A DNA stretch of 64,000 nucleotides from Minisyncoccota bacterium (GTDB taxonomy: Bacteria; Patescibacteriota; Microgenomatia; PFEM01; JAFGMK01). Positions 1,681-51,852 of the stretch are shown one piece after another. The notes under the pieces were generated by a model, which did not search any database, had not been told where the DNA came from, and was given only the letters and a program-made list of their open reading frames with translations. The stretch is from assembly GCA_016927565.1 (NCBI GenBank), contig JAFGMK010000024.1:6105-70104 (forward strand), read 5' to 3'. Every line of letters starts with the position of its first letter. Within the stretch, counting starts at the first letter, position 1. A program made the translations under genes and the position numbers.

Positions 1681-2484
1681 CTAACTTTTCTCAAGTTCAC
1701 TATCGATAATTGATTTAAAGCTTTGATAGGGTTGAGCGCCAACCAGCATCTGGCCATTGATAAAAAAGGTTGGCGTTCCGCTAACCCCCATCTCCCGGCC
1801 CAGCGATGCCTCTTCGCTTTCTTTGGCGCTGAAATCCTTCTCAAGACAACGATCGAACTCAGACCGGTTCAAATCCACCCCTTGACTTAAGACCTGAAGC
1901 GCGGCTTTATTTCCCACTTCATCCTGATTGGCATAAACCACTTTTTTCATCTCCCAACCCTTGCCCTGTTCGGCCGCACACCAGATTATCTTCATTGCCT
2001 CCATACCGGCACCATGACCGGGAAAATAATGAAAAACCAGCCTCACTAAACCCTTTTCAAGATATTCCTTTTCAATCTGAGGCAAGGGCGCTTCCCAACC
2101 GGGAATTCTTGATTTAAGGCTTTCAATTACTTGCTGATTTCCCCCTGCCGCTGCAGCACAGTAAGGACAAGAAGGATCAGAGAATTCAACAATAACCACT
2201 CCCGCCTCGGCACTGCCTTTAACTATTGCCGACTCCTCGATCTTAATTCGAGACTGGACCCCTAAACTGTCTTCTTCTCCCTGCTCCGGCTGACTTGACC
2301 CCGGGGTCGAGGTCGGTCTGGCCGCGAGATCAACTGCCGGTTCTTGATTTTGACCGGTTTCGGAATTCCTGAACTTGGTATATAAAGAGCCGCCCCAAAA
2401 AGCGGCCAGCAGCAAAAGGAAAATCAAAACCGGCGTCGCCAGCTTTGATATATTTCCGGATTCTTCTTTATTTTCCTTAAGCAT
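1681..2484 (-). CDS. DsbA-like thiol:disulfide oxidoreductase (membrane-anchored)
   Basis: N-terminal TM helix and a Pro/Ser-rich linker, then a thioredoxin fold with CPYC (FSDPSCPYCAAAAGG) and a C-terminal GTPTFFINGQ motif typical of the DsbA family. Confidence 0.8.
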   Translation of the reverse strand: MLKENKEESGNISKLATPVLIFLLLLAAFWGGSLYTKFRNSETGQNQEPAVDLAARPTSTPGSSQPEQGEEDSLGVQSRIKIEESAIVKGSAEAGVVIVEFSDPSCPYCAAAAGGNQQVIESLKSRIPGWEAPLPQIEKEYLEKGLVRLVFHYFPGHGAGMEAMKIIWCAAEQGKGWEMKKVVYANQDEVGNKAALQVLSQGVDLNRSEFDRCLEKDFSAKESEEASLGREMGVSGTPTFFINGQMLVGAQPYQSFKSIIDSELEKS

Positions 2485-2589
2485 TAATTTTTCCGCCTTT
2501 AAACCAATTAATAAAACGTTTTTTTGATTGCTTAATCAAGGGAACACTTGGCCTTATTTTCTATTGAATCCGTATTTCTCCGGTGGTTA

Positions 2590-2781
2590 TTACTTTTCTT
2601 CCCAACTGATCGCCTTCACCGGACAAGAATCAATCGCACTCTGAATAACAGCCTGGTCATCTCCTGCCGGATCAATCGGCTTTGATTTGCCTTTTTCATC
2701 CATTTCAAAGCTCTCGGGAGCCAAAGCAACACAAGCTCCGCAACCGATACAGGTTTTTTTGTCAACCTTAACTTTTTTCAT
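2590..2781 (-). CDS. 4Fe-4S ferredoxin (small, single-domain)
   Basis: 63 aa. CIGCGAC motif plus a distal CP (DSCPVKAI), as in Thermotoga/Pyrococcus-type ferredoxins. Confidence 0.8.
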   Translation of the reverse strand: MKKVKVDKKTCIGCGACVALAPESFEMDEKGKSKPIDPAGDDQAVIQSAIDSCPVKAISWEEK

Positions 2782-2821
2782 ATGCGGGTATCATACTAAA
2801 ACCAACGGGATTAATCAAGTT

Positions 2822-4114
2822 TCAACTTCCCCGTATTTTCATTGCCCCAACCACTCTTTCCAGCGCTAGAGCGTAAGCCGCCATCCGGGGAGTAACCTTA
2901 AGAGTTTGATAATTCTGCCAAAAATCAAGAAAGGCCCTGACCATGATCTTTTTTAATTTAGCTAAAACCTCTGCCTTCTCCCAATAATATCCCTGTAAAT
3001 TCTGCACCCATTCAAAATAAGAAACCGTCACCCCGCCGCAATTGGCCAAAACATCAGGAATCACCAGAATCTTTCTTTGGTGTAAAACCTCATCCGCCTC
3101 AGGCGTCGTCGGGCCATTGGCCATTTCAAGCACTACTTTGGCTTTTATTCTGGCAGCGTTATTTTTAGTGATCACATTCTCCAAAGCCGCCGGCACCAAA
3201 ACATAACAATCAGTTTTCAATAACTGATCATTGGTAATTGTTTTTGTTCCCGGGAAACCAACTACCGACCCTGTCTTCTTCTTCCACCTCATCACCCTCT
3301 CCACCTCTAAATATCTCCCTCTTCCGTTTTCCGGCTTCTGTTTTCCGATTATTCCTCCTCTTGAGTCTGAAAGTGATACAATCTTAAAACCTGCTTTTTG
3401 AGCCAATCTGGCAAAATGATAGCCAACATTCCCAAAGCCCTGCACGGCAATTTTTAATTTTTCTTTTCTGATTTTTAATTTTTGGGCCAGTGAAGCAAGA
3501 ATATACACCCCGCCCAAACCGGTCGCCTCTTCTCTTCCCTGGCTTCCTCCCAAAACCAAAGGCTTTCCGGTAAATGACGCTAAAGGATTTGCTCCCAAAT
3601 TTCCCCATCTCCGCATCTTGCGTTTGGCGTTTTGCCTTTTTATATACTCATCGGCCATCCAGGCCATAATTTGACTGTTAGTATTCACATCCGGTGCCGG
3701 AATATCTGTCCAGGGTCCGATAAATGGCGACAATTTTCTCACGTAAGCTCTTGATAAACGTTCCAACTCTCCCGGACTTAGCTTTTTCGGATCGCAAATT
3801 ATCCCTCCCTTAGCCCCTCCGTAAGGAATACCGGCTATCGCACATTTCCAAGTCATCCACATTGAAAGTGCTTTCACTTCTGATTCGTTAACTTGAGGAT
3901 GAAATCTTATCCCGCCCTTATATGGTCCACGGGCACTGTTATGCTGACTCCGGAAAGCCCTAAAAACTTTAATTTTACCATTATCTAATTTTAATTTTAT
4001 ATCAAACTTATGAAGTGTTTCTGGTAACTTTAGTTGTTCAATTATTTCTTTATTCAAATCTAATAATTCAGCTATCTGATTTAACTGGAAAACAGCATTT
4101 TTATAAGGATTCAT
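2822..4114 (-). CDS. gdhA: glutamate dehydrogenase (Glu/Leu/Phe/Val dehydrogenase family)
   Basis: GGAKGGI substrate-binding motif, KGGIRFHP, and a Rossmann GFGNVG motif; 430 aa. Confidence 0.9.
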   Translation of the reverse strand: MNPYKNAVFQLNQIAELLDLNKEIIEQLKLPETLHKFDIKLKLDNGKIKVFRAFRSQHNSARGPYKGGIRFHPQVNESEVKALSMWMTWKCAIAGIPYGGAKGGIICDPKKLSPGELERLSRAYVRKLSPFIGPWTDIPAPDVNTNSQIMAWMADEYIKRQNAKRKMRRWGNLGANPLASFTGKPLVLGGSQGREEATGLGGVYILASLAQKLKIRKEKLKIAVQGFGNVGYHFARLAQKAGFKIVSLSDSRGGIIGKQKPENGRGRYLEVERVMRWKKKTGSVVGFPGTKTITNDQLLKTDCYVLVPAALENVITKNNAARIKAKVVLEMANGPTTPEADEVLHQRKILVIPDVLANCGGVTVSYFEWVQNLQGYYWEKAEVLAKLKKIMVRAFLDFWQNYQTLKVTPRMAAYALALERVVGAMKIRGS

Positions 4115-5538: not shown

Positions 5539-6078
5539 TCAAATTAACATCCAGGAAAAAAGAAGGAAAAAAAGAACCATTCCCAAATAGTAAAAGGCTT
5601 CTATTTTGGAAGAGCGTTTAATCCGCACCTGCCAAAACCAATTAGCCAGACTACTTCCATTGGCCAAAAGCATTCCTTGATTAATCAAAGAGTATAAAAG
5701 CATCGCCATCACCAACCCTTTGCCAAAAAGGGAATTAGTTGAGGAAACGGCAAAAAAAGATACCGCCAGCAGAGTGGCCTGAAAAACAACTGAATGGCCA
5801 ACCAATCTTTTCCTTTCACCGCAAGTATCAGTTAATAAGGCAAATGCTTCTTTAAAACGACGCTGTGTAGTTAACTGCCTGAATCTAACAGCCGTTTCTC
5901 CTTCAGGATTTTGCCAAAGAAGATAGGTTACATGATCAAGATTGTATATTAACAATCCCAAAAAACCACCCAGCCATAAAAATACTAATTGCCAATGAAA
6001 CTGCCAGCGAAGCAGAGTAATCAGGCAAAGATAACCAATCAGAAAAGCAGAATAAACCGGCGCATTCTTTTTAAACAT
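5539..6078 (-). CDS. hypothetical integral membrane protein
   Basis: Multiple hydrophobic helices. No conserved motif recognised. Confidence 0.5.
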   Translation of the reverse strand: MFKKNAPVYSAFLIGYLCLITLLRWQFHWQLVFLWLGGFLGLLIYNLDHVTYLLWQNPEGETAVRFRQLTTQRRFKEAFALLTDTCGERKRLVGHSVVFQATLLAVSFFAVSSTNSLFGKGLVMAMLLYSLINQGMLLANGSSLANWFWQVRIKRSSKIEAFYYLGMVLFFLLFSWMLI

Positions 6079-6302
6079 TTTTCTTTCGTTCTCTTTTTTT
6101 ATTTTTACAACATTTATTGCCTTCTGTCCAGCCCCTTAACACCTCCGGAGTATCTGTCTATTCCACTCCCGGGGTAAAGATTTTATTCTTTGATCGGGGA
6201 TTTTTTTAATCTCCGTTGCCCGCGGGTATAAGCAGCCTTGTGTAACCCCTCTGGCTTGACGCTTATACCGAGGCTGATTTTACAAAACTTTAACGCCGTC
6301 CG

Positions 6303-6365
6303 CTTGAGTCTAACCTTACTGAAAACTAGTCAATCAGGCACAAAGAAACTGAGTTTTCTGAGTGG
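6303..6365. repeat. 63-bp conserved intergenic element, copy 1
   Basis: cttgagtctaaccttactgaaaactagtcaatcaggcacaaagaaactgagttttctgagtgg. About 87% identical to copy 2, with the last 27 nt identical. Confidence 0.8.
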
Positions 6366-6408
6366 ATAAAAACAAATCAACGCTTCAAACTTAAAGAAGT
6401 CAAATTAA

Positions 6409-7383
6409 TCAAACAGCCGACAATTTGTCAAGCAAAGATCGTCCCCGGTCATGTTCCAGAATAAAACAGTGCCCGGTGATCGCCTCCGGCGGAATAAAGC
6501 CCAAAACCATCCGCCCGTCTTCAAGAAGACCTTCGTCAGGCGCTTTTATTAATTCTCTGACCGGTAAATGAATCTTAAAAAGACAGTTGCCAAAAAATCT
6601 TCCCCTCCTCCTTTTAAGATAATCCGGGGTGGTCATTCCCATTCCCAAGTCAAAAGGACTGGACTGCCTAAATTCCCCTGAAGTATACCTGGAACACAAA
6701 AGACCGATCGGCGAAACCGGCGCCTGCCTTATTAGCCATGCCAAGCCAACTTCCGGCTCAAATCTCCTTGCCAGACAGCCTCCGACTTTCCAGTGGAAAT
6801 CAATCGTTCGATAAGCCAAATTCTCAATCTTAAGATATTTTTCTAAACCGCCGGGTATTAAACCATATTTTCTGATGAGTTCTGCTTTTTCGTCAGTTTG
6901 CTCCAGCCACTCACCCCGATAAACCGTCTCCGACCCGTCACCCGAACTGATTCCCGCCAATGCTTTTTCCCAGGCATCCTGTCTTTCGGAAAACCGGCCA
7001 AAAATATGCTTCACTCCCCGCCAATCCCCGGCATGAATTGTTAATAATTCCGGATATTGAAGCTGGATTCTTCTTTGATCTTTTTCATCTATCTTGGCCT
7101 CCGCCAACCATCTGTCTAAAAATATCTGCGCCCGAACTGCCACTCCAATTTGTTGCACCGTCATCGGAAAACTCAAAATGAGCCGCGCCGCCTCGGCTGC
7201 CAAATCCCTTATCTGTCCCTCATCTTCTCCGAGATACATCTTCTCAACAATCTGCCGGACCATTCTCCATCTATCGGCTAGGGAAATTGTTTCTTCTTTA
7301 CCCCATCGTTTCAGCCGCTGTGCTTCAGTTGCGGCCAGTTTATAATTTGTCTCCCAAACTTCCGGTCCGTCTTTTATCTTCAT
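6409..7383 (-). CDS. hypothetical protein (324 aa)
   Basis: Uninterrupted ORF bracketed by the two 63-bp repeats. No motif recognised. Confidence 0.5.
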   Translation of the reverse strand: MKIKDGPEVWETNYKLAATEAQRLKRWGKEETISLADRWRMVRQIVEKMYLGEDEGQIRDLAAEAARLILSFPMTVQQIGVAVRAQIFLDRWLAEAKIDEKDQRRIQLQYPELLTIHAGDWRGVKHIFGRFSERQDAWEKALAGISSGDGSETVYRGEWLEQTDEKAELIRKYGLIPGGLEKYLKIENLAYRTIDFHWKVGGCLARRFEPEVGLAWLIRQAPVSPIGLLCSRYTSGEFRQSSPFDLGMGMTTPDYLKRRRGRFFGNCLFKIHLPVRELIKAPDEGLLEDGRMVLGFIPPEAITGHCFILEHDRGRSLLDKLSAV

Positions 7384-7526
7384 GTTCCCCAGCTTCCTTT
7401 TAAAAAAAACATATCAAGCGGCTTTCCGCTCTCCTGCCCCCACAAGACCGCCCTTTGTAACTTTTCGTTCGAAATTTAAGTCAAACTGACTGCGGGTATT
7501 ATTTTAAAGAAACGGAGTTCTCTCTG

Positions 7527-7589
7527 CTTGAGATTAACCTTACGAAAAACTAGTCATTTAGGCACAAAGAAACTGAGTTTTCTGAGCAG
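7527..7589. repeat. 63-bp conserved intergenic element, copy 2
   Basis: cttgagattaaccttacgaaaaactagtcatttaggcacaaagaaactgagttttctgagcag. Same orientation as copy 1. Confidence 0.8.
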
Positions 7590-7621
7590 ATTTCTTGAAG
7601 TGGAGAAAAAGAAAGCTCAAA

Positions 7622-9520
7622 CTAACCCCAAAGTTCCCTCGTCAATTCAACATTTCTCGGATGAGTCAGAGTCGCCAGAGTTTCATCATCAAGATCATGA
7701 AGCCTTTGCCTAATAAAGGAGCTGTGAACATCCGACAAGGAGCCCATTAAAAAAACAGCCTGAACGCCATTATCAAAAACCCGGCCCATAACCGGAATCG
7801 CTTGATAAGCAGTTCCCAGCTCGCCCATTTGCAAATTTAAAACTGTCCGGATTCCATTTAGAAATTCGTGCCCTTGCGGTTCTGTTTCTTCGGTATAAAT
7901 GCCCCTAGCCCGATCAAGAGCATCAGTTCCCGTCAACCGACCCAAAGAAACAGTCAGACCCCGATCTTTAAATGCCTGACAATGAGCCAACAGCTTATCA
8001 GCTGTTGGCCTGCCGGCATCCCTGGCAGAATACAAAAAAATTCCCGCCTGACCCCTTGTCGCCTGGTGAACCATCTCCCGCCTGATTGCCGCCTTCCGCT
8101 CCAGATGCCTTTTTTCCGGATTGCCCCGATTAACACTAATCCCTACATAAACCGCGCCACCTCCAAACAGACTAGGAAACTGTCGCCCTGCTACCTCCCT
8201 TGCCGCTTCTTCATGGCCAACATGAATCGGCCCAAATTGTCCATGAAAATCAAGCACAGAAACCCCATTTCTGACTGTCCCTACACTGCGGGGTCGTTTA
8301 GTCCTTATCTCATGATCGTCAATCTGACGATTGTGTTTTCTCCAAACCGAATTATCCATCCCTAAAAACCGATAATAAGCCTCACTCCATTCAAAGGTGT
8401 GTAAACCTCGTAAGCGCATCTCTAAAATAAATTGGCCAATTAAAGAATGAGTAAACCCGGATAATTCCCCATCAACACCGCGGACATGAGAATTAAGTTT
8501 TTTAAAACCCCAACCTGCAAATGATTCCACTCCTCTCCCGGGAGAAAACTTAGGAACCAATAATTCCGACGGGGTAAAAGAAGCGCATAAACCCAAAAGA
8601 CTTTCCCTAGACAAAGCCAAAAGACGACGCCTAACCAAAGAACACATTTCTTGAGCCAACATCGCCCGATCAGTCACTGCCAGATTATTTTCCCCTCCCC
8701 TGTCAAGCCTCTCTCCCAAAGCTAAGGCTATTAACGGGATAATATCAGCCACCGAGGTTGATCTCAACGCCCCAACCTCCGAAGAACTTTCAAGAAAAAT
8801 GCCAAAAGTTTCGCTTGCTTTTGCTGCCGCCTGAGCAATCAAAACAAAATCTTGTTTTCGAGAGCCTTCCTCTCTTCCCAACTCTTGAGCACAAGCAGTC
8901 GAAAAATGTTCCAATTGAGCCACGCCATTCCAAGGACTATGCCAAGAAACATCTCTGCCAATCTGTTCCAAAGCCTCAATCCTTCTAAACTCTTCACTTC
9001 CCCAAACTTCACCCCGATCACTTAAATCATGATAAGCTGAATCCGCTAACGAAGAAGGTCCCGATCGAAATCCCTCCAGAGGCTTTATCTCTCCTCCTCT
9101 TAAAAACAAACCGGGGACAAGAACTGGATCAAGAAAGGCTAATCCAGCCAAAGACTGGAACCAACCGGCGATCGTCTCCGCTCTGACTCCCTGATCTAGC
9201 CAAACCCTAACATGCTCCCTGAAAGTCCTTGGTCCAACCGGATCCTTTCGGTTATAACCCATCGAAAAATGGGCAGCCGAACGATGAAGCCTCTCAAAAA
9301 CATTTACATCCGCACGAGAACTAAAAGCCAATGATCTAGTCAATAAACCAAAACCATCGGCCAGTTGAACCGTCAATGTCTGCTCCGGTGATTGTTCAAC
9401 TGCGATTACATACTCAGCAATCCGGCCTAGCCAAGTAGGACTTCTTAAAGCTTCAGGAGAAGCATTCAGGTCGCGAGCGTATCTTGCCAAAAGCAGGTTA
9501 TAACTTTCCGGCCTAGCCAT
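7622..9520 (-). CDS. hypothetical protein (632 aa)
   Basis: Long ORF. The C-terminal region has His-rich segments (LDFHGQFGPIHVGHEE). A sugar-active hydrolase or deacetylase fold is only a weak guess. Confidence 0.5.
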   Translation of the reverse strand: MARPESYNLLLARYARDLNASPEALRSPTWLGRIAEYVIAVEQSPEQTLTVQLADGFGLLTRSLAFSSRADVNVFERLHRSAAHFSMGYNRKDPVGPRTFREHVRVWLDQGVRAETIAGWFQSLAGLAFLDPVLVPGLFLRGGEIKPLEGFRSGPSSLADSAYHDLSDRGEVWGSEEFRRIEALEQIGRDVSWHSPWNGVAQLEHFSTACAQELGREEGSRKQDFVLIAQAAAKASETFGIFLESSSEVGALRSTSVADIIPLIALALGERLDRGGENNLAVTDRAMLAQEMCSLVRRRLLALSRESLLGLCASFTPSELLVPKFSPGRGVESFAGWGFKKLNSHVRGVDGELSGFTHSLIGQFILEMRLRGLHTFEWSEAYYRFLGMDNSVWRKHNRQIDDHEIRTKRPRSVGTVRNGVSVLDFHGQFGPIHVGHEEAAREVAGRQFPSLFGGGAVYVGISVNRGNPEKRHLERKAAIRREMVHQATRGQAGIFLYSARDAGRPTADKLLAHCQAFKDRGLTVSLGRLTGTDALDRARGIYTEETEPQGHEFLNGIRTVLNLQMGELGTAYQAIPVMGRVFDNGVQAVFLMGSLSDVHSSFIRQRLHDLDDETLATLTHPRNVELTRELWG

Positions 9521-9570: not shown

Positions 9571-10941
9571 CTAAGAATTGGCAGCGATAAATTTATAGCC
9601 TCTTCCCCTCAAAGTCACAATTCTACTCGCCGAGCCAACCTTAATCAGTCTCTTTCTTAGCTTACTAATTAACTGATCAATCGCCCAATCAGAATATTTA
9701 TCATACGAATCCTCTCCCCAAAGCACCTCGCCTAAGTTATCTCTTGTTTTTAAAACGCCCGGAGCTTTTAGAAAGAACATTAAAACATTGTATTCCTGAG
9801 TAGTGAATTTCTCTTCAACCGGCTGGCCCCGAAAAAGAATAGCCCCTCGCTCGGGACTGTAAGTTAAGTCCTGCGACGAGCCGGCTGTCATCACCACCTC
9901 TTTCTTACCTAGACAGACTTGCTCAAAAACCTCTCCATAGAGCCGCCATCGGCCATCCTCGGCTTTATAAATCAAACCAAGCTTACTTAAGAGATGATTC
10001 TCCAGGGAGGTTTCTTCTTCAACCCTATCCCCAGCAGCAATCCTTCTCAAAAGCGATCTTGCCTCATCAGAAAGCACTTCTAGAACACCCCCAGAAACCG
10101 CATTCAGCTCATAATGAGCCAAAATTTGTTTTTTAAGTTTGTCCAAGCCTACCTTTTTTCCATTAAACAGGGCAATTGTCCGAGCCGCCACCACAATCGA
10201 ATAAGGATGAGGCCCGCAACTCGCCTTGATCAAATTCTTTTCTTTGTCAGAAAACTTTCTCTTAAAACGAGAGGTAATCCTATCGATTAAATAATCAATC
10301 TCTTTTCTAAAAATCGGGATGTATAAAACATTCTGCAATAAAAGCTCATTAAGATCCTTATACCGGGCAATTTTATCCAAGTCGACAATCTCCTCCCGAT
10401 TTAAAAAAACAAAGTGAACTAACGGGGCAAATTTAAGCCATAGAAATTTTAAATTGTTATAAAAAACTCCATCAGCAAAGTCTAATTCATCAAACTCCCC
10501 CAGAAAAAAAACAATCTCTAAACCGCAATCAGCCACTTTTTTTACCAGTTCATTTACTTTTGACAGAAGCCGAGCGTAACTTAACTTATCTCCTTCAAAA
10601 ACTTTTAGATCCTTCTCAGAAATTACCCCACGGCACTCTTCTCTCGTCAGACAGGCATCAACCAAGCTTTTTCCAACTAACCTAAAATATCCCCGAGCCG
10701 ACTCTTCAATTAATTCTAACGGCTCAATATAAACCAATAAATAATCATTAAAATTAGAAATAATTTTAGGAAAAAGATTAATATTTTCGATAACAAATTT
10801 TGTCACAACTCTCCGGCCTGCCATTGGCACCCAAATCATTGTTACGCTTTCGCCTCTTTTAATCGGTTCGAAAACTAACTTGACTAAATCCTCAATCGTT
10901 TCTTTGCCCAGCGGGTAAAAAAACTTAGACTGCTGAACCAT
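9571..10941 (-). CDS. putative regulator: N-terminal ATPase-like domain fused to a C-terminal OmpR/PhoB-type winged-helix DNA-binding domain
   Basis: The C-terminus (TTQEYNVLMFFLKAPGVLKTRDNLGEVLWG...IDQLISKLRKRL...IVTLRGRGYKF) matches the OmpR trans_reg_C pattern (W-x-G ... TVRG.GY). The N-terminal part has a Walker-B-like IVFFLGEFDELD but no clean P-loop. Confidence 0.55.
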   Translation of the reverse strand: MVQQSKFFYPLGKETIEDLVKLVFEPIKRGESVTMIWVPMAGRRVVTKFVIENINLFPKIISNFNDYLLVYIEPLELIEESARGYFRLVGKSLVDACLTREECRGVISEKDLKVFEGDKLSYARLLSKVNELVKKVADCGLEIVFFLGEFDELDFADGVFYNNLKFLWLKFAPLVHFVFLNREEIVDLDKIARYKDLNELLLQNVLYIPIFRKEIDYLIDRITSRFKRKFSDKEKNLIKASCGPHPYSIVVAARTIALFNGKKVGLDKLKKQILAHYELNAVSGGVLEVLSDEARSLLRRIAAGDRVEEETSLENHLLSKLGLIYKAEDGRWRLYGEVFEQVCLGKKEVVMTAGSSQDLTYSPERGAILFRGQPVEEKFTTQEYNVLMFFLKAPGVLKTRDNLGEVLWGEDSYDKYSDWAIDQLISKLRKRLIKVGSASRIVTLRGRGYKFIAANS

Positions 10942-11644
10942 GCTCTATCTCTCCAGTCAGATAAAAATCAGAATTCACTCAGATAATATCAAACATTTTT
11001 TTAAAATGCAATGAGAAAAAAATAGTCTTATAACAATAATTTTGAGGATCCTTAAGTAAGCCATTTTTTTTGATTTAAACCAAGTGTAAAACTGGGTTTC
11101 CTAAAAAAGCCCAAAAGATGAACCGGCTTATAACCATAAAACCCGCTTATTCTTATCTGAGTTTTAACCTTTAACTTTTTAGTTCGCCTTTGACAATCTC
11201 GGCACAGAAAGAGAACTTTTAGATCACAGAAAAAACTGTACTTTCGATATACCGGAATAACCTTAAAAGACTCTCGGAAATTAGTGAGTCGGCCTGCTGC
11301 CGTTATTCTACAAATCGCCCCCCAGGCAATCTTTTGCCAAAAGGCTACTGGCCAGTCTTAAATCACCTTCCCCCTTTTTTTCTCTCTCCTCAGCTCCTTC
11401 AAATTCCACAAAAACAATCAATGACAGAATTTAGCTAAAGCTTCTGCCGAGCCCAAGTCTACTCCAGAACCTTCCGGAACAGGATCACTTTTAATCCCTC
11501 AATATAAATGAAGCGCTTTTGGTTATCAGTCACCAAAAAGGACTCCCCTGGTCAAGGCCACCCTTTCACCCAACTCCGGCAATCTCTCTAGCTTCTTTAA
11601 TCGATAACGTCGTGTAATTCATACTTAAATAGTATTTAGAAAGT

Positions 11645-37289: not shown

Positions 37290-37362
37290 TGCGGGGTAGT
37301 GTACGGCGGCACGTGAGGCTCATAATCTCACAGACCGGGTTCAACTCCCGGCCCCGCAACCA
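37290..37362 (+). tRNA. tRNA with anticodon CAT (Met or Ile-lysidine type); CCA encoded
   Basis: Hand-folded. Acceptor stem TGCGGGG/CCCCGCA, U8, D-stem GTGT/GCAC, anticodon stem TGAGG/TCTCA with loop CTCATAA, T-stem CCGGG/CCCGG with loop TTCAACT, discriminator A, then CCA. It lacks the three G-C pairs of an initiator. Confidence 0.65.
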
Positions 37363-37430: not shown

Positions 37431-37509
37431 TAACGATCCCGGATCATCTGCAGATTTCTTTTCCGGGATCGGGAAAGCTCCGGATTGTTAAAGAAAGTAA
37501 ATCGTTGCC
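37431..37509. repeat. GATCCCGGATC-family hairpin element, full copy A
   Basis: aaagataaCGATCCCGGAtcatctgcagatttcttTCCGGGATCGggaaagctccggattgttaaagaaag. A 10-bp perfect stem, a 17-nt loop, and a trailing CCGGATT. Confidence 0.7.
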
Positions 37510-37563: not shown

Positions 37564-37635
37564 GCTAGGGTAGCTCAGGGGTAGAGCAATCGTTTCATAA
37601 GCGATGGGTCGCCGGTTCAAATCCGGCCCCTAGCA
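37564..37635 (+). tRNA. tRNA with anticodon CAT (Met/Ile2 type); no encoded CCA
   Basis: GCTAGGG-TA-GCTC-AGGGGTA-GAGC-A-ATCGT-TTCATAA-GCGAT-GGGTC-GCCGG-TTCAAAT-CCGGC-CCCTAGC-A. A canonical 72-nt cloverleaf. G1-C72 paired and no GGG/CCC in the anticodon stem, so an elongator type. Confidence 0.8.
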
Positions 37636-37647
37636 CAATAATTACTT

Positions 37648-38283: not shown

Positions 38284-39150
38284 ATGAATAGCAATCTTGA
38301 CTCGCTTGAGACTGCCCACAAAAGGCTGGTTAACCATCTAAAAAACAAGGGCCGCGCTCAGGCAACTATCCTTGCCTACCGGAAGGATATTGAACAGTTA
38401 GTCGCTTTTCTAAAAGACAAAGGCATTAGTCAGACAACTTCAGTTACTTCCGACCACATTGAAGAATTCAAAAAAAGTCTGATGGAAAAAAAATACACTG
38501 CCAAGTCGGTTTCAAGAAAGCTCAATGCCATTAAAACTTTCTTTAAATTCCTGGAAGAAGAAGGCGTCCTGCTCTTAAACCCGGCCACAGCCGTTGCCCA
38601 CCCGAAATACAAAATTAAGGCACCGCGGATTCTTTCCCAGATGGAATACCGGGCCATCCGAGACGCCGCCAGGGAAGACACTCGTATTTCCACAATAATT
38701 GAACTTTTACTTCAAACCGGAATGAGAATCGGCGAATTAGCCCGGCTGGAAACCGGCGATGCTAATGAAAAAACCTTAACCATCCGAGGCTATGAATCTC
38801 ATAAACAAAGAGACATTCCGCTGAACCGATCGGCCCGAAAAGCCCTGGAAGCCTACCTTGAAACCAGACCCAAAGTCCGCACCCGATCGTTATTTGTCAC
38901 CAAAAACGGCCGGCCGTTTTTAGTCAGAAACATCAGAAGCGCAATTGAACGCTATTTCCGTATCGCCGGTTTAGAAAATGCCAAAGTTAACGATCTCAGA
39001 CATACCTTTATTGCCCACCAATTAGGTGCCGGCAACTCCGTTGTCCTGATTCAAAAATTAGTTGGACACAAAAGACTTTCCACTACTGAAAGATATTTGG
39101 AATTCGTCGAAAGCACCTCTTCTGAAGAAGTTAAGATCAAAGAATTGTAG
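38284..39150 (+). CDS. tyrosine recombinase, XerC/XerD family
   Basis: An N-terminal SAM-like core-binding domain. The catalytic region shows R...HTFIAHQLGAGNSVVLIQKLVGHKRLSTTERY (R-H-R-Y tetrad with the terminal Tyr). Confidence 0.85.
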   Translation: MNSNLDSLETAHKRLVNHLKNKGRAQATILAYRKDIEQLVAFLKDKGISQTTSVTSDHIEEFKKSLMEKKYTAKSVSRKLNAIKTFFKFLEEEGVLLLNPATAVAHPKYKIKAPRILSQMEYRAIRDAAREDTRISTIIELLLQTGMRIGELARLETGDANEKTLTIRGYESHKQRDIPLNRSARKALEAYLETRPKVRTRSLFVTKNGRPFLVRNIRSAIERYFRIAGLENAKVNDLRHTFIAHQLGAGNSVVLIQKLVGHKRLSTTERYLEFVESTSSEEVKIKEL

Positions 39151-39194
39151 CTAAATCAAAATCTCCGAAGCCTAACCTTATCCAAAATACCCTG

Positions 39195-39266
39195 TGCGCC
39201 TGCTTGGATTCGAACCAAGAACCCTCGACTTATAAGATCGATGCTCTACCGTTGAGCTACAGGCGC
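39195..39266 (-). tRNA. tRNA-Ile with anticodon UAU (reads AUA)
   Basis: Minus-strand fold: GCGCCTG-TA-GCTC-AACGGTA-GAGC-A-TCGAT-CTTATAA-GTCGA-GGGTT-CTTGG-TTCGAAT-CCAAG-CAGGCGC-A. Anticodon loop C-T-[TAT]-A-A. No encoded CCA. Confidence 0.8.
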
Positions 39267-42424: not shown

Positions 42425-43216
42425 TCAAATAAAATCCCCGCCCACTCCCCGCAATTTAGTTTTTGGGATCATTTCTGAAATCATTTTTTTAAAAGCTTTC
42501 AACTGGGAAACAGCAAAAGGCTCTATTTCATTGAATCCAGGGTCAAGGCAGTTTTTGGGTTGAAAAGACTGAAGAACCCAGGAGAAATCTCTAATTTTCC
42601 GACCGCAACCGGCAAACAGGTTTTTTAAATCCCGAGCCATTGTCAGCAAAACCTTTTCATCATGGATGGTCGGTACTATGGTTGTCCGGAATTCAAACGG
42701 CAAGCCAGAGTCTATTATCAACCGCATAGATTCCTTAATTCCAGCGGCTAACGATCCCGGATCGTCTGCAGATTTCGATCCTGGATCGGATTGCCCCCCG
42801 GATTTAATTCCAACTACATTTTCATAATCCGAAAATGTAGTCTTATAATCCATCGCCCAAAAATCTACCAGTTTTGCCTCAAGCAATTTTTTGATGACCT
42901 CAGGCCGACTACCGTTAGTTTCTATCATTATCTTAAAACCCAAAGCTTTAACCTTAGTTGAAAACCCCAAAAGGTCTGGCTGGAGAGTCGGTTCACCACC
43001 GGTAACCGCCACACCATCAATCCATTTGCTCCGCCGCTTCAAATCCGTCAAAACAATCTTCTCGCTGTGATGTTTCAGCTTTTTACTATTGATTTTCACC
43101 AGGTCGCGATTGTGGCAAAACGGACAGGCAAAATTGCAGCCCGGGACAAAGATCACTGAAGCAATCTTGGTCGGCCACTCGATCAGAGAGGTTTTTAAAT
43201 AACCGGCAATTTTCAT
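42425..43216 (-). CDS. nrdG: anaerobic ribonucleotide reductase activating protein (radical SAM, NrdG/PflA family) carrying a 20-codon in-frame insertion
   Basis: CNFACPFCHN radical-SAM cluster motif near the N-terminus. An internal GIK-SGGQSDPGSKSADDPGSLAAG-IKESM segment is encoded by a copy of the GATCCCGGATC repeat element. Confidence 0.8.
   Translation of the reverse strand: MKIAGYLKTSLIEWPTKIASVIFVPGCNFACPFCHNRDLVKINSKKLKHHSEKIVLTDLKRRSKWIDGVAVTGGEPTLQPDLLGFSTKVKALGFKIMIETNGSRPEVIKKLLEAKLVDFWAMDYKTTFSDYENVVGIKSGGQSDPGSKSADDPGSLAAGIKESMRLIIDSGLPFEFRTTIVPTIHDEKVLLTMARDLKNLFAGCGRKIRDFSWVLQSFQPKNCLDPGFNEIEPFAVSQLKAFKKMISEMIPKTKLRGVGGDFI
42748..42808. repeat. GATCCCGGATC-family element, copy B, inside the nrdG coding sequence and flanked by an 8-bp direct repeat TTAATTCC
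   Basis: ctaaCGATCCCGGATCGtctgcagatttCGATCCTGGATCGgattgccccccggattt. TTAATTCC occurs at 42736-42743 and 42804-42811. Confidence 0.7.
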
Positions 43217-43223
43217 AAAAACT

Positions 43224-43275
43224 AATCGATCCCGGATCCTCAGGTATTTCTAATCCGGGATCTTAAATCCCCAGA
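43224..43275. repeat. GATCCCGGATC-family element, copy C
   Basis: ctaatcGATCCCGGATcctcaggtatttctaATCCGGGATCttaaatcccc, in the nrdG-nrdH intergenic region. Confidence 0.65.
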
Positions 43276-43579: not shown

Positions 43580-45733
43580 TTAAAACCGACCCTCATTTTT
43601 GTGACGATCGTTAAGCTCTCCTATCTTACCCTTATTCCAGCGGCTGATACGGGAATAAAAACCGGTCACTCGCGTCACCCCGTCAACTTCTTCCGAGCCG
43701 CACTTAGGACAAGCATCATGAAGGCCCCGTGTTGTCGCCAGACAACAATCACAAATTGTAAATTCCGGCGAAAAGGCAATCAGACCGTTCTGGGTTTGTT
43801 CAAAGGTTTTTTTGACAAAACTCGCAATCGAAACCGGATCCGGGTTCTGTTCCCCCAACCAGAGATGACTAATGGCTCCGGCATCAATTAAAGGATGAAA
43901 AAGGCCTTCTTTGGTCACTCTTTCAATCGGATCAATATTTTCGGAAATATTCAATTGGGTCGAGTTGGTATAGTAAATATAATCATCTTCCCATCGTCCC
44001 TTAATCACTTTCCGTGATTGATCAGGATAAAAACGCTTATCCAGTTTGGCAAAGCGATAAGTCAGTCCTTCAGCCGGAGTCTGTTCCAAAACATAATCCA
44101 TCTTATCCCGCCGGCTCATTTCTTTGGCCTTCTTATTGATGGCCGCCACAATCTTCAAACCCAATTTTAAAGCCTCGTTACTTTCATGCAGCTGTTGTCC
44201 CAGACAATACTCAACTGTTTCATTCACGCCGAAAATACCTACCAGAAACTTGGCTTTTTTAAAGCGGTAATACATTTCAGGATCATCCTTTTGCCGGGTT
44301 GTCAGCGAGCCGAGAGGACCCTGAAGCCCCATCTCAAGAAGTCGTTTAATAAACCGTCTTTTCTGTTGATGGGCTTTGGCTAAAAGTTCCATTCCCTTGT
44401 CAATTTCTTTAAACAGTTTTTCCGATTTACCCTTAGCTTTGTAAGCCATCCGAGGCAGATTCAAGGAAACGTTTTGCATTGCTGAATGGCGCATCTGCCA
44501 GGGTTTTTTGGCTTCCTCGAGATCTTTTTTATTCAGATTGAAAGAAAGCCGGCAGCACTCGGAAATCCGGGCTGTTTTTCCCCGATCCAAAACAAAATAA
44601 GTGTTGCCTCTTTCAGCTGCCACCCGCGAAGCCAGCCGGAGAAACTCCTTATGACCCGGAGTGGCCCAAAATTTTTCCGTAATGTGCAAATTCGGCTTCG
44701 GCCAGAAAAAGGGCCGGCCGGCCCCGTCTCCCTCCAGGTAAATTTCAAAAATGGCTCTTAAGAAATCCTGTGATTCTTTCTCGTAGTCCTGATAATTTTT
44801 GCCGGTATAAACTCCTCCGGGGCCAATGGCCGGAGTTTTGGCAAAATGATCCGGTACTTCCCAGTAAAGGTTAATATCTGAAAAAATTGCTTGCCCCCCC
44901 CGAGCTACATTCTGCATATTAAACTCAAATAAAAGCATTTGAGCCAGCTGCCTTATCTCGGCAAAGGGCATTCCCACCAAATAAGGCGCCATAAAAAGAT
45001 TGACCGCATCAAAACCAATTGCCCCGGCAAAATGAACCTGGAGCATCGCTGCCAGCTTAATAATCTGCAGTATTAAAACCTGAGCATGCTTTGCCGGTTT
45101 GGCCACTGCCAATGACGAGGCAATGTCTAAACCATACTTCTTAACATATTCAATCGATTGACCACAGCAATAAGGCCGATCAATGAAATCGAGATCATGA
45201 AGATGTAAATCCCCCCGAGCATGAGCCTCAGCCACTTCTTGAGAAAAAACTCGACGGAGAGCGTATTCTTTTTTGATATTTCGAGCCAAAGAGAGATTGG
45301 TAGCTTCGGTATTATGAGGAACATTGGCATTAATCCGATTTTGTTCCGTCAACATTTTATGGACATCATAAATCGGGACTCCTAAACGAACGTGCTTATA
45401 GTAATATTTTTCCAAGCCTCGAGATAATAATTCAGCATTAGTCATCTCCCGAATTAAATTGGTAGAAACATGTTTAACTTTGGAGTCAACGATTTGTTTT
45501 TCCACTTCCCGGGCAATCCTCATTGCCAGATATTCATCCATCCCGGTTTCAATAATCAGCCTTTTGGCAATTTGGGTCACATCCCATTTTTTTAAAGCCT
45601 CATCAGAAGTAGAAACAAAAAACATCACATCAGTGGCCTGATGTTTTTGGGCATTAGCCAGGTATTTAGCCTGCTTTCTGGTTAAGCCGCTGCCGTTTTT
45701 GCCATTTTGATATTTATCTATTTCGCTAGGCAT
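43580..45733 (-). CDS. nrdD: anaerobic ribonucleoside-triphosphate reductase (class III large subunit), with an N-terminal ATP-cone-like region
   Basis: HLHDLDF motif, a C-terminal zinc ribbon (CDCC...CPKC), and the glycyl-radical motif TRVTGFY; 717 aa. Confidence 0.85.
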   Translation of the reverse strand: MPSEIDKYQNGKNGSGLTRKQAKYLANAQKHQATDVMFFVSTSDEALKKWDVTQIAKRLIIETGMDEYLAMRIAREVEKQIVDSKVKHVSTNLIREMTNAELLSRGLEKYYYKHVRLGVPIYDVHKMLTEQNRINANVPHNTEATNLSLARNIKKEYALRRVFSQEVAEAHARGDLHLHDLDFIDRPYCCGQSIEYVKKYGLDIASSLAVAKPAKHAQVLILQIIKLAAMLQVHFAGAIGFDAVNLFMAPYLVGMPFAEIRQLAQMLLFEFNMQNVARGGQAIFSDINLYWEVPDHFAKTPAIGPGGVYTGKNYQDYEKESQDFLRAIFEIYLEGDGAGRPFFWPKPNLHITEKFWATPGHKEFLRLASRVAAERGNTYFVLDRGKTARISECCRLSFNLNKKDLEEAKKPWQMRHSAMQNVSLNLPRMAYKAKGKSEKLFKEIDKGMELLAKAHQQKRRFIKRLLEMGLQGPLGSLTTRQKDDPEMYYRFKKAKFLVGIFGVNETVEYCLGQQLHESNEALKLGLKIVAAINKKAKEMSRRDKMDYVLEQTPAEGLTYRFAKLDKRFYPDQSRKVIKGRWEDDYIYYTNSTQLNISENIDPIERVTKEGLFHPLIDAGAISHLWLGEQNPDPVSIASFVKKTFEQTQNGLIAFSPEFTICDCCLATTRGLHDACPKCGSEEVDGVTRVTGFYSRISRWNKGKIGELNDRHKNEGRF

Positions 45734-45774
45734 ATTTTGGTTTGGACAGGGTCTGAGCCCTCATCATTTCCCAA

Positions 45775-47745
45775 TCAAATATTTTTATTTCGATGCCGGT
45801 CCCTGAGTTCCGCCTTCTTGCCCCGCCCCCATGAACTGGTAAAGGTATAATAGCCGGTAATCCTCGTAATTCCATCTACCTTTCTGGAATGACAATAAGG
45901 ACAACTCCCCAATAATCCCCGAGCTAAACGCCGGCACTTTAAGCACAAGGTAAATTCGGGTGAAAGGGCAACTTGGGTATTTTGGGTCCGGTTAAAAGTC
46001 TTTTTAATTAACCGGCCGACAGAAGCAGGACTCGGCTCGCGCTCCCCTAACCAAAGATGGGTAATATTACCGCCTTCAATTAGAGGATGGAAAAGGCCTT
46101 CCTTTTCAATTCTGTCTAAGGGATCAATCTCGGCATCAACATCTAAATGAGTTGAGTTGGTATAATAAACTGAACCGGATTCAGGATCACCGTGAACAAT
46201 CTTAAGGGCTTGTTTGGGAAACCGGCTCAAATCAAGCCGGGCAAAACGATAGCAGGTTGACTCAGCCGGATCCTGTTCAAGAATGATTTTTAACCGGCTT
46301 TTTTTGCTTTCCTGATCGCAAAGATATTTCATGAAAGCCACTATTTTCAGACCAAATTTCAGCGCCTGATCGCTCTCATGCATCTTCTGGCCCAAATGCG
46401 CCCGAACACAGTCGCCCACCCCCAAGACACCGACCAAATAGGCCATTTTGGTAAAACGCAAATATGATTCTTTTTCACCCTCCTGTTTAACCGTCAACAA
46501 TCCCAAAGGGCCGGTTTCTCGCCGATCCAAGAGTTTTTTTAAGAAGGCTCCTTTTTGTTTATGAGCCTCGAAAACCAGTTGCATCCTTTTTCTGATCAAT
46601 TCAAAAAGCTTTTTTTCATTTCCTTTGGCCTGATAAGCAATCCTAGGCAAATTAAGAGAAATATAAGGAGCTGCGGAAAAACGCATCCGCCAAGGTTTTT
46701 TAGTGTCTTTTAAATCCTCACTGGAAAGAGTGAAAGAGACCCGGCAGCATTCAGAAATCTTGGCAGTTTTTCCCCGATCCAGCATAAAGTAAGGATTACC
46801 TGTTTTGGTCGCCACTTCGCAAACATGATTCAAAAACCGACTATGCCCCGGAGTGGCCCAAAACTTGTCGGTAATATGGAGATTGGGCTTGGGCCAAAAA
46901 AAAGGCGAACCCTGGCTGTCGCCTTTTTTATAAACGGAAAAGATTTGCCAAACAAAGCTCTGAGCTTCTTTTTCATAATCACCATAAACCTTGCCGGTAT
47001 ATTGACCCCGGGGACCAATAGCCGGAACCTTTTCAAAATGAGCCGGCACCTCCCAATAAAGATTGAGATCAGAAAAAATCGGCTGACCGCCATGAGGTCC
47101 GATAGTTTGATTAAATTGATGAATCAACTTTTGCGCCGCCTGATAGATTTCACTATCGGAGAGGCCTGTCAAATAAGGCGCCAAAAATAAATTAACCGCG
47201 TCCCAGCCGATCGCCCCGCCAAAATTAGCCCTGAGAGCCAAAGAAAACCGGTAAAGATGATCCAAAGCTGAGTCAATGTGAGCGGCCGGCCTGGTCGCCG
47301 CAAAACTGGCATAACGGTTAAGACCGTATTTTTTAACATACTCAACGCTCTGGCCGGAACAATAAGGCCGGTCAATAAAACCTAATTTATGAAGATGCAA
47401 ATCTCCCCGCCGGTGAGCCCGAGCCACTGATTTAGAATAAACCTTATTTAGGGCATACTCTTTTTTAACAAACTCGGACAGAGTAAAACTTGTTCCCTCA
47501 GGAGTGTTGGGCATATTGGCATCGCTCCGGCTACCTTCTTTCGCGATGACAGTCTCAATCTCCTCTAAAGAAAGAGAGACTCTTCCGTCTTCACCTGTAT
47601 CCTCAAAATGGAAAAGGCCATTCCCGTTACTGTTTTGGGAATGATTGTCTTTTTTCTGAACTTTAGGACCGGGTAATATCCGGGCCAATTGCCGGGAAAT
47701 TCCCAAAGAAAAATCGGTCACATCAAGTCGTTTTTTTTGAACCAT
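45775..47745 (-). CDS. nrdD: second class III ribonucleotide reductase paralog (no ATP-cone)
   Basis: HLHKLGF, a zinc ribbon (CLKC...CPYC), and the Gly-radical motif TRITGYY; 656 aa. Collinear with the upstream copy across most of its length. Confidence 0.8.
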   Translation of the reverse strand: MVQKKRLDVTDFSLGISRQLARILPGPKVQKKDNHSQNSNGNGLFHFEDTGEDGRVSLSLEEIETVIAKEGSRSDANMPNTPEGTSFTLSEFVKKEYALNKVYSKSVARAHRRGDLHLHKLGFIDRPYCSGQSVEYVKKYGLNRYASFAATRPAAHIDSALDHLYRFSLALRANFGGAIGWDAVNLFLAPYLTGLSDSEIYQAAQKLIHQFNQTIGPHGGQPIFSDLNLYWEVPAHFEKVPAIGPRGQYTGKVYGDYEKEAQSFVWQIFSVYKKGDSQGSPFFWPKPNLHITDKFWATPGHSRFLNHVCEVATKTGNPYFMLDRGKTAKISECCRVSFTLSSEDLKDTKKPWRMRFSAAPYISLNLPRIAYQAKGNEKKLFELIRKRMQLVFEAHKQKGAFLKKLLDRRETGPLGLLTVKQEGEKESYLRFTKMAYLVGVLGVGDCVRAHLGQKMHESDQALKFGLKIVAFMKYLCDQESKKSRLKIILEQDPAESTCYRFARLDLSRFPKQALKIVHGDPESGSVYYTNSTHLDVDAEIDPLDRIEKEGLFHPLIEGGNITHLWLGEREPSPASVGRLIKKTFNRTQNTQVALSPEFTLCLKCRRLARGLLGSCPYCHSRKVDGITRITGYYTFTSSWGRGKKAELRDRHRNKNI

Positions 47746-51749: not shown

Positions 51750-51852
51750 TTCAATTTATCTTTGGTCAAAATTACTGGCAAATCACCTTAACTAGTTTTT
51801 TCTATTTTCCCCTCTTTAATAAAGCTCGATGATCAGCTAAAATCCAAAAATA

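Follow-up and report, generated by a model that had tools for sequence, protein, structure and literature searches.

A duplicated, probably promoter-associated repeat and a neighboring PhoB-like protein as its candidate regulator in a Patescibacteria genome

A duplicated element under selection

The 64,000-nt stretch of DNA analyzed here, referred to as the window (contig JAFGMK010000024.1 of a Minisyncoccota bacterium, positions 6,105 to 70,104), contains two copies of a 69-nt repeat, R1 and R2, that precede genes for a 179-aa membrane protein and a 324-aa protein, respectively. Comparison with homologous sequences makes it reasonably probable that the repeat is the activator or operator region of a promoter lacking a -35 box, duplicated for the two genes and probably served by the PhoB-like regulator of 456 aa encoded nearby. 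The repeat would act as double-stranded DNA, forming the upstream regulatory half of a promoter that is conserved within one clade of Patescibacteria.

In a repeat search of the window, R1 and R2 align without gaps over 69 nt with 60 identical positions (87%), in the same orientation. A preliminary description of this DNA had reported a direct repeat of 63 nt; this repeat is real (55 of 63 positions identical), its true extent being slightly longer. The identical 27-nt core, AGGCACAAAGAAACTGAGTTTTCTGAG, occurs twice in the 64 kb and still only twice with three mismatches allowed, while none is expected by chance (100 shuffles), and profile nhmmer also found these two copies and no third one in the window. 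On the minus strand, R2 and R1 start 30 and 41 nt, respectively, past the stop codon of the preceding gene and end 139 and 220 nt ahead of the next start codon.

The flanks were compared register-matched, segment by segment, on the sense (minus) strand. Similarity stops sharply at both borders of the 69 nt, and the flanks are at random identity: 8 of 33 positions agree upstream of the repeat, 5 of 16 directly after the core, and 15 of 40 and then 7 of 37 further downstream. The only exception is a TAAAAT hexamer past the 16-nt segment, which is identical in all six positions and kept in register. Local alignment of the two intergenic regions beyond the 69 nt is not significant (30 of 300 shuffles score equally high). 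The nine differences between R1 and R2 (C/T, T/A, C/T, T/G, G/A, A/T, C/T, T/C, and G/A) are situated in columns that carry less information in the other lineages described below (0.72 versus 1.09 bits, one-sided p = 0.04). Since the flanks are saturated with change while the core and the TAAAAT hexamer are preserved, the pattern points to selection rather than recent copying, and the repeat is, judging from these substitutions, a real element under selection. An origin of the repeat in paralogous neighboring genes was rejected, as the 324-aa, 632-aa, and 179-aa proteins encoded around it are unrelated.

Copies in other lineages

The preliminary description had proposed a search for further copies in related genomes, and it was rewarded. 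A profile built from the two window sequences (nhmmer) retrieved a third copy in locus L005 (E = 4e-7), the TrxB protein of which is 73% identical. The blocks common to the window copies and L005 gave the pattern CTCAGAAAACTCAG-N38-42-CTCAAGC, and a scan of the JGI (Joint Genome Institute) metagenomes with it yielded nine loci. Of these, L011 is the L005 contig again (JGI sample 3300031566), L013 does not differ from L018 within the element, and a GC-rich match, L015, was rejected as due to chance; L012, L013/L018, L014, L016, L017, and L019 were kept. The family thus comprises nine copies, R1, R2, and seven from six other Patescibacteria lineages. The latter have 52-75% core identity, and in the other genomes the element is single-copy and stands in a promoter context. 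In all nine copies a gene follows on the same strand 90-200 nt downstream. In L005, an IS30-like insertion sequence (2318-3438, with HTH_38 and rve transposase domains and 32-nt terminal inverted repeats) is inserted upstream of the element, 18 nt separating its inverted repeat from the upstream edge of the element.

Four matches to the core 20-mer in genome contigs, from Deinococcus, Legionella, and an unrelated metagenome-assembled genome, were dismissed as chance matches with unrelated flanks, and scans of viral contigs gave no matches to the element.

Promoter layout

Alignments and column analysis reveal one layout shared across the family on the gene-sense strand, which is the minus strand of the window. 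CTCAG-N4-CTCAG is followed by 16-17 weakly conserved nucleotides. Next come two tandem 11-bp units, nnACTAGGTTT (unit 1) and, 11 nt on, nAGTAAGGTTT (unit 2, about 6 of 11 positions identical to unit 1), which can also be summarized by the consensus nnYTAGGTTT. The third 11-bp unit, nnCTCAAGCRG, occupies the -35 position and ends one base inside the promoter-proximal edge of the repeat. It is followed by a 17-nt spacer of fixed length and unrelated sequence and by a hexamer that reads TAAAAT in three copies and TATTAT in six. The hexamer keeps the same register in eight of nine copies, so that a TAnnnT box at a fixed distance from the operator is found upstream of the gene in these eight; the predicted transcription start would lie about 7 nt past TAAAAT. 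The units, their spacing, and the -10 hexamer were not included in the search pattern.

Units 1 and 2 form a tandem direct repeat with a period of about 11 bp, and unit 3 stands in the place of a -35 box; the forward promoter has AAGCRG at this position and no TTGACA-like hexamer. Promoters that depend on an activator typically lack this box. In L013, L016, and L019, divergent genes have promoters on the opposite strand, read by eye as TTGAAG/TTGTAG/TTGAAC-17-TATAAT/TAAAAT, hence canonical sigma-70-type -35 boxes are in use in these organisms. Because the forward promoter has no such box, it should need an activator, and we infer activation rather than repression.

In the same three loci, the divergent -35 boxes lie directly against the CTCAG pair, suggesting that one control region serves both directions. 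The divergent genes, 45-55 nt upstream of the element, start 10-13 nt after their near-consensus promoters, so that their mRNAs would have very short leaders or none.

The preliminary description had proposed a shared promoter or operator driving both genes. This is the reading we favor, and it was right in kind; its anatomy was wrong, the conserved -10 box lying outside the repeat as then delimited. The hexamers read there as promoter boxes, TTGACT/ATGACT and TAGACT/TAATCT with a 15-nt spacer, do occur in the sequence, but they fall within units 1-3, and the seven homologous copies do not preserve them (L005, for instance, has AGCACT and TACCGC there). Similarly, an AGAAA-N6-TTTCT dyad is present in the window copies and is not conserved in the homologous ones. 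A sigma-54 reading of a plus-strand GGCAC was also discarded, as its spacing to a GC dinucleotide is unfit (by eye) and other members of the family do not share the motif. The literature was searched for the motif string and for promoter motifs of Patescibacteria, and nothing relevant was found.

A PhoB-like candidate regulator

The best candidate for the binding protein is the 456-aa regulator. Its C-terminal winged-helix region (aa 356-452) contains a Trans_reg_C domain (Pfam, residues 378-451), and no receiver domain was detected in the protein. Of the solved structures, the DNA-binding domains of PhoB match it best (1qqi and 1gxp, the latter a complex with DNA), and NCBIfam agrees with the PhoB-type assignment of the domain. 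In pho boxes, 11-bp direct repeats stand in for the -35 box and are bound by PhoB as a tandem dimer; more generally, domains of the PhoB type occupy direct repeats of 11-bp period in head-to-tail order. The winged helix of the 456-aa protein would bind units 1-3 in the same head-to-tail manner.

A member of the regulator family is found beside the element in all four loci with enough flanking sequence, that is, in the window, in L014 (44% identity, full length), in L005 (32% identity, E = 1e-65), and in L012 (a partial homologue, the C-terminal fragment of which is at the locus edge), and L019 encodes a related winged-helix protein 5 kb from the element. The recognition-helix region (SYDKYSDWAIDQLISKLRKRLI) is 73-77% identical among the orthologues, as compared with 36-41% for the N-terminal 355 residues. 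The earlier suggestion that the adjacent winged-helix regulator binds the repeat gains support from this co-occurrence, which identifies the protein as a putative cognate regulator by association only. One regulator would then control both the 324-aa gene, via R2, and the 179-aa gene, via R1, the latter possibly together with trxA-trxB.

Several observations weigh against this reading. Concerted change of half-sites within genomes is not significant (p = 0.105). The distal CTCAG pair has a period of 9 bp rather than 11 bp, for which there is no specific explanation. In six loci, CTCAGAAAACTCAG and CTCAAGC are invariant because the search pattern required them, and only the window copies and L005 are independent in this respect. 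In L019 the hexamer is either 3 nt closer or, in the usual register, the weaker TATGCT. Weak -10-like hexamers are present upstream of the element in some loci, and read-through transcription is possible. A terminator-like hairpin lies between the predicted R2 start and the 324-aa gene. Finally, the N-terminal part of the regulator, about 355 aa, has no domain assigned to it.

The coordinates of the features discussed are collected in Table 1.

Table 1. Features of the two repeat copies and of the surrounding genes (positions in the window)
Feature	Position	Strand	Remark
Repeat copy R1	6299..6367	-	Proposed to be the regulatory upstream half of a promoter for the 179-aa membrane-protein gene
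Repeat copy R2	7523..7591	-	Matching element 5' of the 324-aa gene
R1 distal site CTCAGAAAACTCAG	6349..6362	-	CTCAG twice, 9-bp period; identical in R2 and L005, the latter found without the pattern
R2 distal site CTCAGAAAACTCAG	7573..7586	-	
R1 tandem units 1 and 2 (TGACTAGTTTT, CAGTAAGGTTA)	6311..6332	-	Candidate winged-helix sites
R2 tandem units 1 and 2 (TGACTAGTTTT, TCGTAAGGTTA)	7535..7556	-	
R1 unit 3 (GACTCAAGCGG)	6300..6310	-	Contains CTCAAGC; -35 position, without a TTGACA-like hexamer
R2 unit 3 (ATCTCAAGCAG)	7524..7534	-	
R1 predicted -10 box TAAAAT	6277..6282	-	17 nt after unit 3, outside the repeat
R2 predicted -10 box TAAAAT	7501..7506	-	In register with R1
R1 5'-UTR hairpin (GGTATAAGC...GCTTATACC around the GGTTA motif)	6225..6269	-	Family-wide RNA-type stem
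R2 5'-UTR terminator-like hairpin GAGCGGAAAGCCGCTT	7416..7431	-	T8 begins 6 nt later
179-aa membrane-protein gene	5539..6078	-	Downstream of R1; relatives carry orthologues beside trxA-trxB
324-aa gene	6409..7383	-	Downstream of R2; small family, predicted ADP-ribosyltransferase-like fold
632-aa gene	7622..9520	-	Upstream of R2; C-terminal half homologous to the gene upstream of the L019 element
456-aa regulator	9571..10941	-	Candidate binder; C-terminal PhoB/OmpR-type winged-helix domain
5.5-kb segment	6079..11644	.	Regulator, 632-aa gene, R2, 324-aa gene, R1, and 703 nt non-coding

RNA structure of the element and of the downstream leader

The 69-nt part has no conserved RNA fold. With RNAalifold, the sense strand gave no consensus pairs and the antisense strand only -2.2 kcal/mol, which is negligible, and single-sequence folds are no better than shuffles (z about 0), which disposes of the earlier suggestion of a family of small conserved RNAs. 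Two candidate structures were considered and dropped. A terminal stem of R1 and R2 with a compensatory change from C-G to T-A is not kept in the nine-member family, where 41-67% of the cells are paired, no better than in controls. A central hairpin seen by eye (ACTA/TAGT and similar) is better explained by the two 11-bp direct repeats, RNAalifold giving no pairs. Searches of Rfam (Rfam 15) gave no match to the window region at the gathering score or at E<=10 and none to six homologous loci at E<=1.

Downstream of the -10 box, the sequences of R1, L005, L013, L014, L016, L017, and L019 each fold by themselves into an extended stem that encloses a short GGUUA- or GAUUA-loop hairpin, with z-scores from -2.1 to -7.5. 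In L012 the minimum-energy fold differs, the stem arms still pairing as a duplex. The arms diverge across lineages yet stay complementary, as illustrated by GAAAGGCTTAAAGAG/CTCTTTAGGCCTTTC, GAAAGATCTGGGGA/TCCCCAGGTCTTTC, and, in R1, GGTATAAGC/GCTTATACC. The boundary between the unstructured and the structured part coincides with the predicted transcription start, so that the whole resembles a promoter followed by a structured 5' untranslated region (UTR). The hairpin may be an undescribed cis-regulatory RNA motif of Patescibacteria. In the R2 UTR this family hairpin is lost or degenerate.

The apical hairpin reads GGC-GGUUA-GCC, with the variants AGC-GAUUA-GCU in L016 and GAGC-GGUUA-GCUC in L019, and is degenerate in both window copies. 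The structure ends a few nucleotides before the start codon.

Alternative explanations

The same DNA-level control region could be recognized by another protein, or could be an operator for a repressor, which we regard as improbable. Candidates for such a binder are the small Zn-ribbon protein encoded downstream of the element in most lineages (see below), a nucleoid protein, or an alternative sigma factor recognizing CTCAAGC. The promoter anatomy would be identical to that expected with the PhoB-like regulator. CTCAG-N4-CTCAG, with its 9-bp period, and CTCAAGC are unlike the 11-bp units, making more than one binder plausible, and the Cys-rich Zn-ribbon protein, being the product of the first gene downstream in canonical loci, could be autoregulatory. 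However, the window has no gene for the Zn-ribbon protein, yet R1 and R2 are still constrained; the winged-helix regulator is the only DNA-binding protein that co-occurs consistently, and the missing -35 box favors activation over repression. A different proposal is that the 69 nt form the 5' domain of a cis-acting leader RNA of about 190 nt, riboswitch-like or protein-binding, with the downstream hairpin as its 3' domain. The adjacent hairpin is convincing, given its z-scores and the complementarity of its arms across lineages, the element always stands before a gene of the same orientation, some -10-like hexamers occur ahead of it, and the R2 UTR has a terminator-like hairpin, as attenuators do. 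This proposal nevertheless seems doubtful to us: there are no sense-strand pairs in the 69-nt domain and the terminal stem of the window copies is not kept in the family, and the succession of tandem direct repeats, a spacer constant in length but unrelated in sequence, and TAWWAT is characteristic of promoters rather than of RNA. In addition, Rfam has no match even at E<=1 to 10, and in L005 the IS30-like element 18 nt upstream leaves no space for a native upstream promoter. It is accordingly not likely that the 69 nt and the GGUUA hairpin constitute a single undescribed cis-regulatory RNA class specific to Patescibacteria. If they did, ligand or protein sensing would control the operon of the Zn-ribbon and membrane proteins, and the RNA would have been recruited twice in this genome, to the ADP-ribosyltransferase-like gene and to the membrane-protein/thioredoxin operon.

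Explanations in which the repeat has no regulatory role fare worse. The preliminary description had left room for a footprint of recombination or a recent local duplication, and the copies do bracket a single gene within a 5.5-kb segment that three related lineages lack. A neutral footprint of the event that brought the 324-aa gene is, however, effectively refuted and very improbable: identity falls from 87% to random exactly at the borders while TAAAAT 17 nt off is kept in register, the differences avoid the columns conserved in the family, and homologues with 52-75% core identity exist in other lineages, where they occur singly and in a promoter context. Even less credit can be given to the idea that R1 and R2 are sites of site-specific recombination or ends of a mobile element (attC-like sites, IS200/IS605 hairpins, a miniature inverted-repeat transposable element (MITE), or attL/attR), which would make the 324-aa gene an excisable cassette. 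Direct repeats flanking one sparsely distributed gene, short complementary ends of R1 and R2 with one compensatory change, and the different genomic positions of the module in different lineages would all fit. On the other hand, the element has no conserved hairpin, no pair of attC core sites, and no target-site duplication that could be seen by eye; the 324-aa protein appears to be ADP-ribosyltransferase-like and not a transposase or recombinase; a scan of 31 window proteins detected just one tyrosine recombinase, encoded at a distance of more than 30 kb (38284-39147); and the other genomes have the element once, in a promoter context.

Comparison with known elements

The activator region proposed here resembles the Escherichia coli pho box and other sites of the OmpR-PhoB family in its 11-bp tandem repeats at the -35 position, normal -10 box, and absence of a TTGACA-like -35 box, and the DNA-binding domain of the neighboring regulator is most similar to that of PhoB. 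In contrast to the PhoB system, the regulator has no receiver domain and carries an N-terminal region of about 355 aa instead, there is an additional distal CTCAG-N4-CTCAG about 80-90 bp upstream, and the sequence of the candidate half-sites is unrelated to that of the pho box. The SARP/AfsR-type activators of Streptomyces bind heptameric direct repeats with 11-bp spacing that overlap the -35 box. They share with the protein described here the combination of an OmpR-type winged helix with a large domain other than a receiver, as well as 11-bp-spaced repeats by the -10 box. However, the winged helix of SARPs is N-terminal and followed by BTAD, whereas here it is C-terminal, and Pfam detects no BTAD or NB-ARC domain in the regulator.

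A sparsely distributed gene followed by a direct repeat of 60-70 bp recalls integron cassettes and attC sites. Unlike in integrons, neither inverted core sites nor a hairpin is conserved, an adjacent integrase and a cassette array are missing, and the homologues are single and upstream of genes. A search for the core pair RYYYAAC...GTTRRRY found only one GTTAGAC-like box, in R1, that is not kept in R2, the DNA fold has z about 0, and no integrase domain is present in the neighboring genes. Rfam leader RNAs are similar to the hairpin in the neighboring 5' UTR, with its compensatory changes just before the start codon, and differ from the 69-nt repeat, which has no conserved structure; neither part has a match in Rfam. 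The direct orientation had earlier been taken to speak against terminal repeats of an insertion sequence. In agreement with this, R1 and R2 do not have the properties of insertion sequences, MITEs, or IS200/IS605 elements, the copies being direct and the enclosed protein having no transposase domain. They are also unlike diversity-generating retroelements, as the differences are not confined to template adenines, both copies are intergenic, and no reverse transcriptase is encoded by the neighboring genes, and unlike repetitive extragenic palindromes or bacterial interspersed mosaic elements, as there are two copies in 64 kb and the element is not palindromic.

Genes downstream of the element and the inserted segment

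In most lineages the element precedes a gene for a conserved Zn-ribbon protein of 65-78 aa with the motif PLQRWLL..RCVGCGR, which extends to PLQRWLL..RCVGCGR...C.C. In L012, L013/L018, L014, L016, and L017, this gene is followed by one for a 35-52-aa membrane protein; neither product has a match in Pfam or NCBIfam. Genes encoding MamF/MmsF-like, PCMT, Pth, and MFS proteins come after the tiny membrane protein. The window has neither of these small genes. The L005 element is followed by a gene for a 69-aa membrane protein, the homologue of which in L007 is encoded directly upstream of the 179-aa gene. In view of this arrangement, the position of R1 before the 179-aa gene looks like the lineage's own, and R2 before the 324-aa gene looks like an added copy.

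All genes around the repeat in the window are on the minus strand and follow each other, in the order of transcription, as the regulator, the 632-aa gene, R2, the 324-aa gene, R1, the 179-aa gene, trxA, trxB, and gdh. Loci of the nearest TrxB homologues, which are at most 74% identical, served for comparison. The orthologues of the 97-aa (76% identity) and 179-aa (54%) genes are only 12-169 nt apart in L008/L009, L021/L022, and L020. As the flanking orthologues are nearly adjacent there, the 5.5-kb segment is an insertion in the window relative to these three related lineages. The models of anti-phage defense systems in PADLOC have no match among the three proteins of the inserted segment. A 703-nt stretch of this segment, 10942-11644, has no open reading frame of at least 40 aa.

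Word-indexed protein search with the 324-aa and 632-aa proteins returns only the proteins themselves, annotated as hypothetical in a Candidatus Pacebacteria genome assembled from a metagenome. The 324-aa gene is nevertheless no true orphan, as exhaustive HMMER search reveals 20 homologous clusters with 27-42% identity. The AlphaFold model built with the alignment of these homologues is confident, with a predicted local distance difference test (pLDDT) score of 88 and a predicted template modeling (pTM) score of 0.88. Its best Foldseek matches are mono-ADP-ribosyltransferase toxins, namely Scabin, ScARP, cholera toxin A1, pierisin, and TreX, with probability up to 0.97 and E-values of only about 0.1-0.7. 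The family alignment contains the R-S-E motifs of mono-ADP-ribosyltransferases, [YF]R[G], ISTTT, and EDE[RH]T. According to the model, the small family to which the protein belongs has an ADP-ribosyltransferase-like fold. The window protein itself has GMGMTT and EDG at the last two motifs and may thus have lost the catalytic glutamate and be catalytically inactive.

The 632-aa protein has a weak signature of a nicotinamide mononucleotide/nicotinic acid mononucleotide (NMN/NaMN) adenylyltransferase-like domain of the HxGH nucleotidyltransferase type in its C-terminal half (residues about 425-536). A 31%-identical homologue of this half is encoded directly upstream of the element in L019 (142-993). 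The NAD-making domain and the product of the adjacent, NAD-using ADP-ribosyltransferase-like gene may form a functional pair.

Other repeats and tRNA genes of the window

A 28-nt direct repeat (37431-37458 and 42749-42776, 96% identical, 5318 nt apart, with a partial third copy at 43227-43262) brackets the tyrosine recombinase gene 38284-39147 and tRNA genes and looks like the ends of an integrated element beside tRNA-Met. The tRNA genes listed with it are at 37290-37362, 37564-37636, and 39194-39266; the last, on the minus strand, encodes tRNA-Ile with a UAU anticodon (TAT in DNA), as predicted by ARAGORN. Further diverged pairs of direct repeats at 49749-53215 and 44650-47235 have constant spacings of 2524 and 2192 nt, respectively, are 72-83% identical, and probably mark tandem paralogous genes.

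Implications

To our knowledge, almost nothing is known about regulation of transcription in Patescibacteria (the Candidate Phyla Radiation), nearly all of which are uncultivated. As a class, the element is an ordinary one, a duplicated promoter dependent on a transcription factor, and its value lies in giving an entry into regulation in an uncultivated phylum. The locus offers a rare pair that can be tested in vitro, a PhoB-like protein without a receiver domain and a conserved operator/promoter of about 110 bp followed by a 5'-UTR hairpin. A small Zn-ribbon protein, small membrane proteins, and an ADP-ribosyltransferase-like protein appear to be brought together in the regulon with the thioredoxin neighborhood. 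If the proposed binding is true, the motif could be used to trace this regulon across metagenomes.

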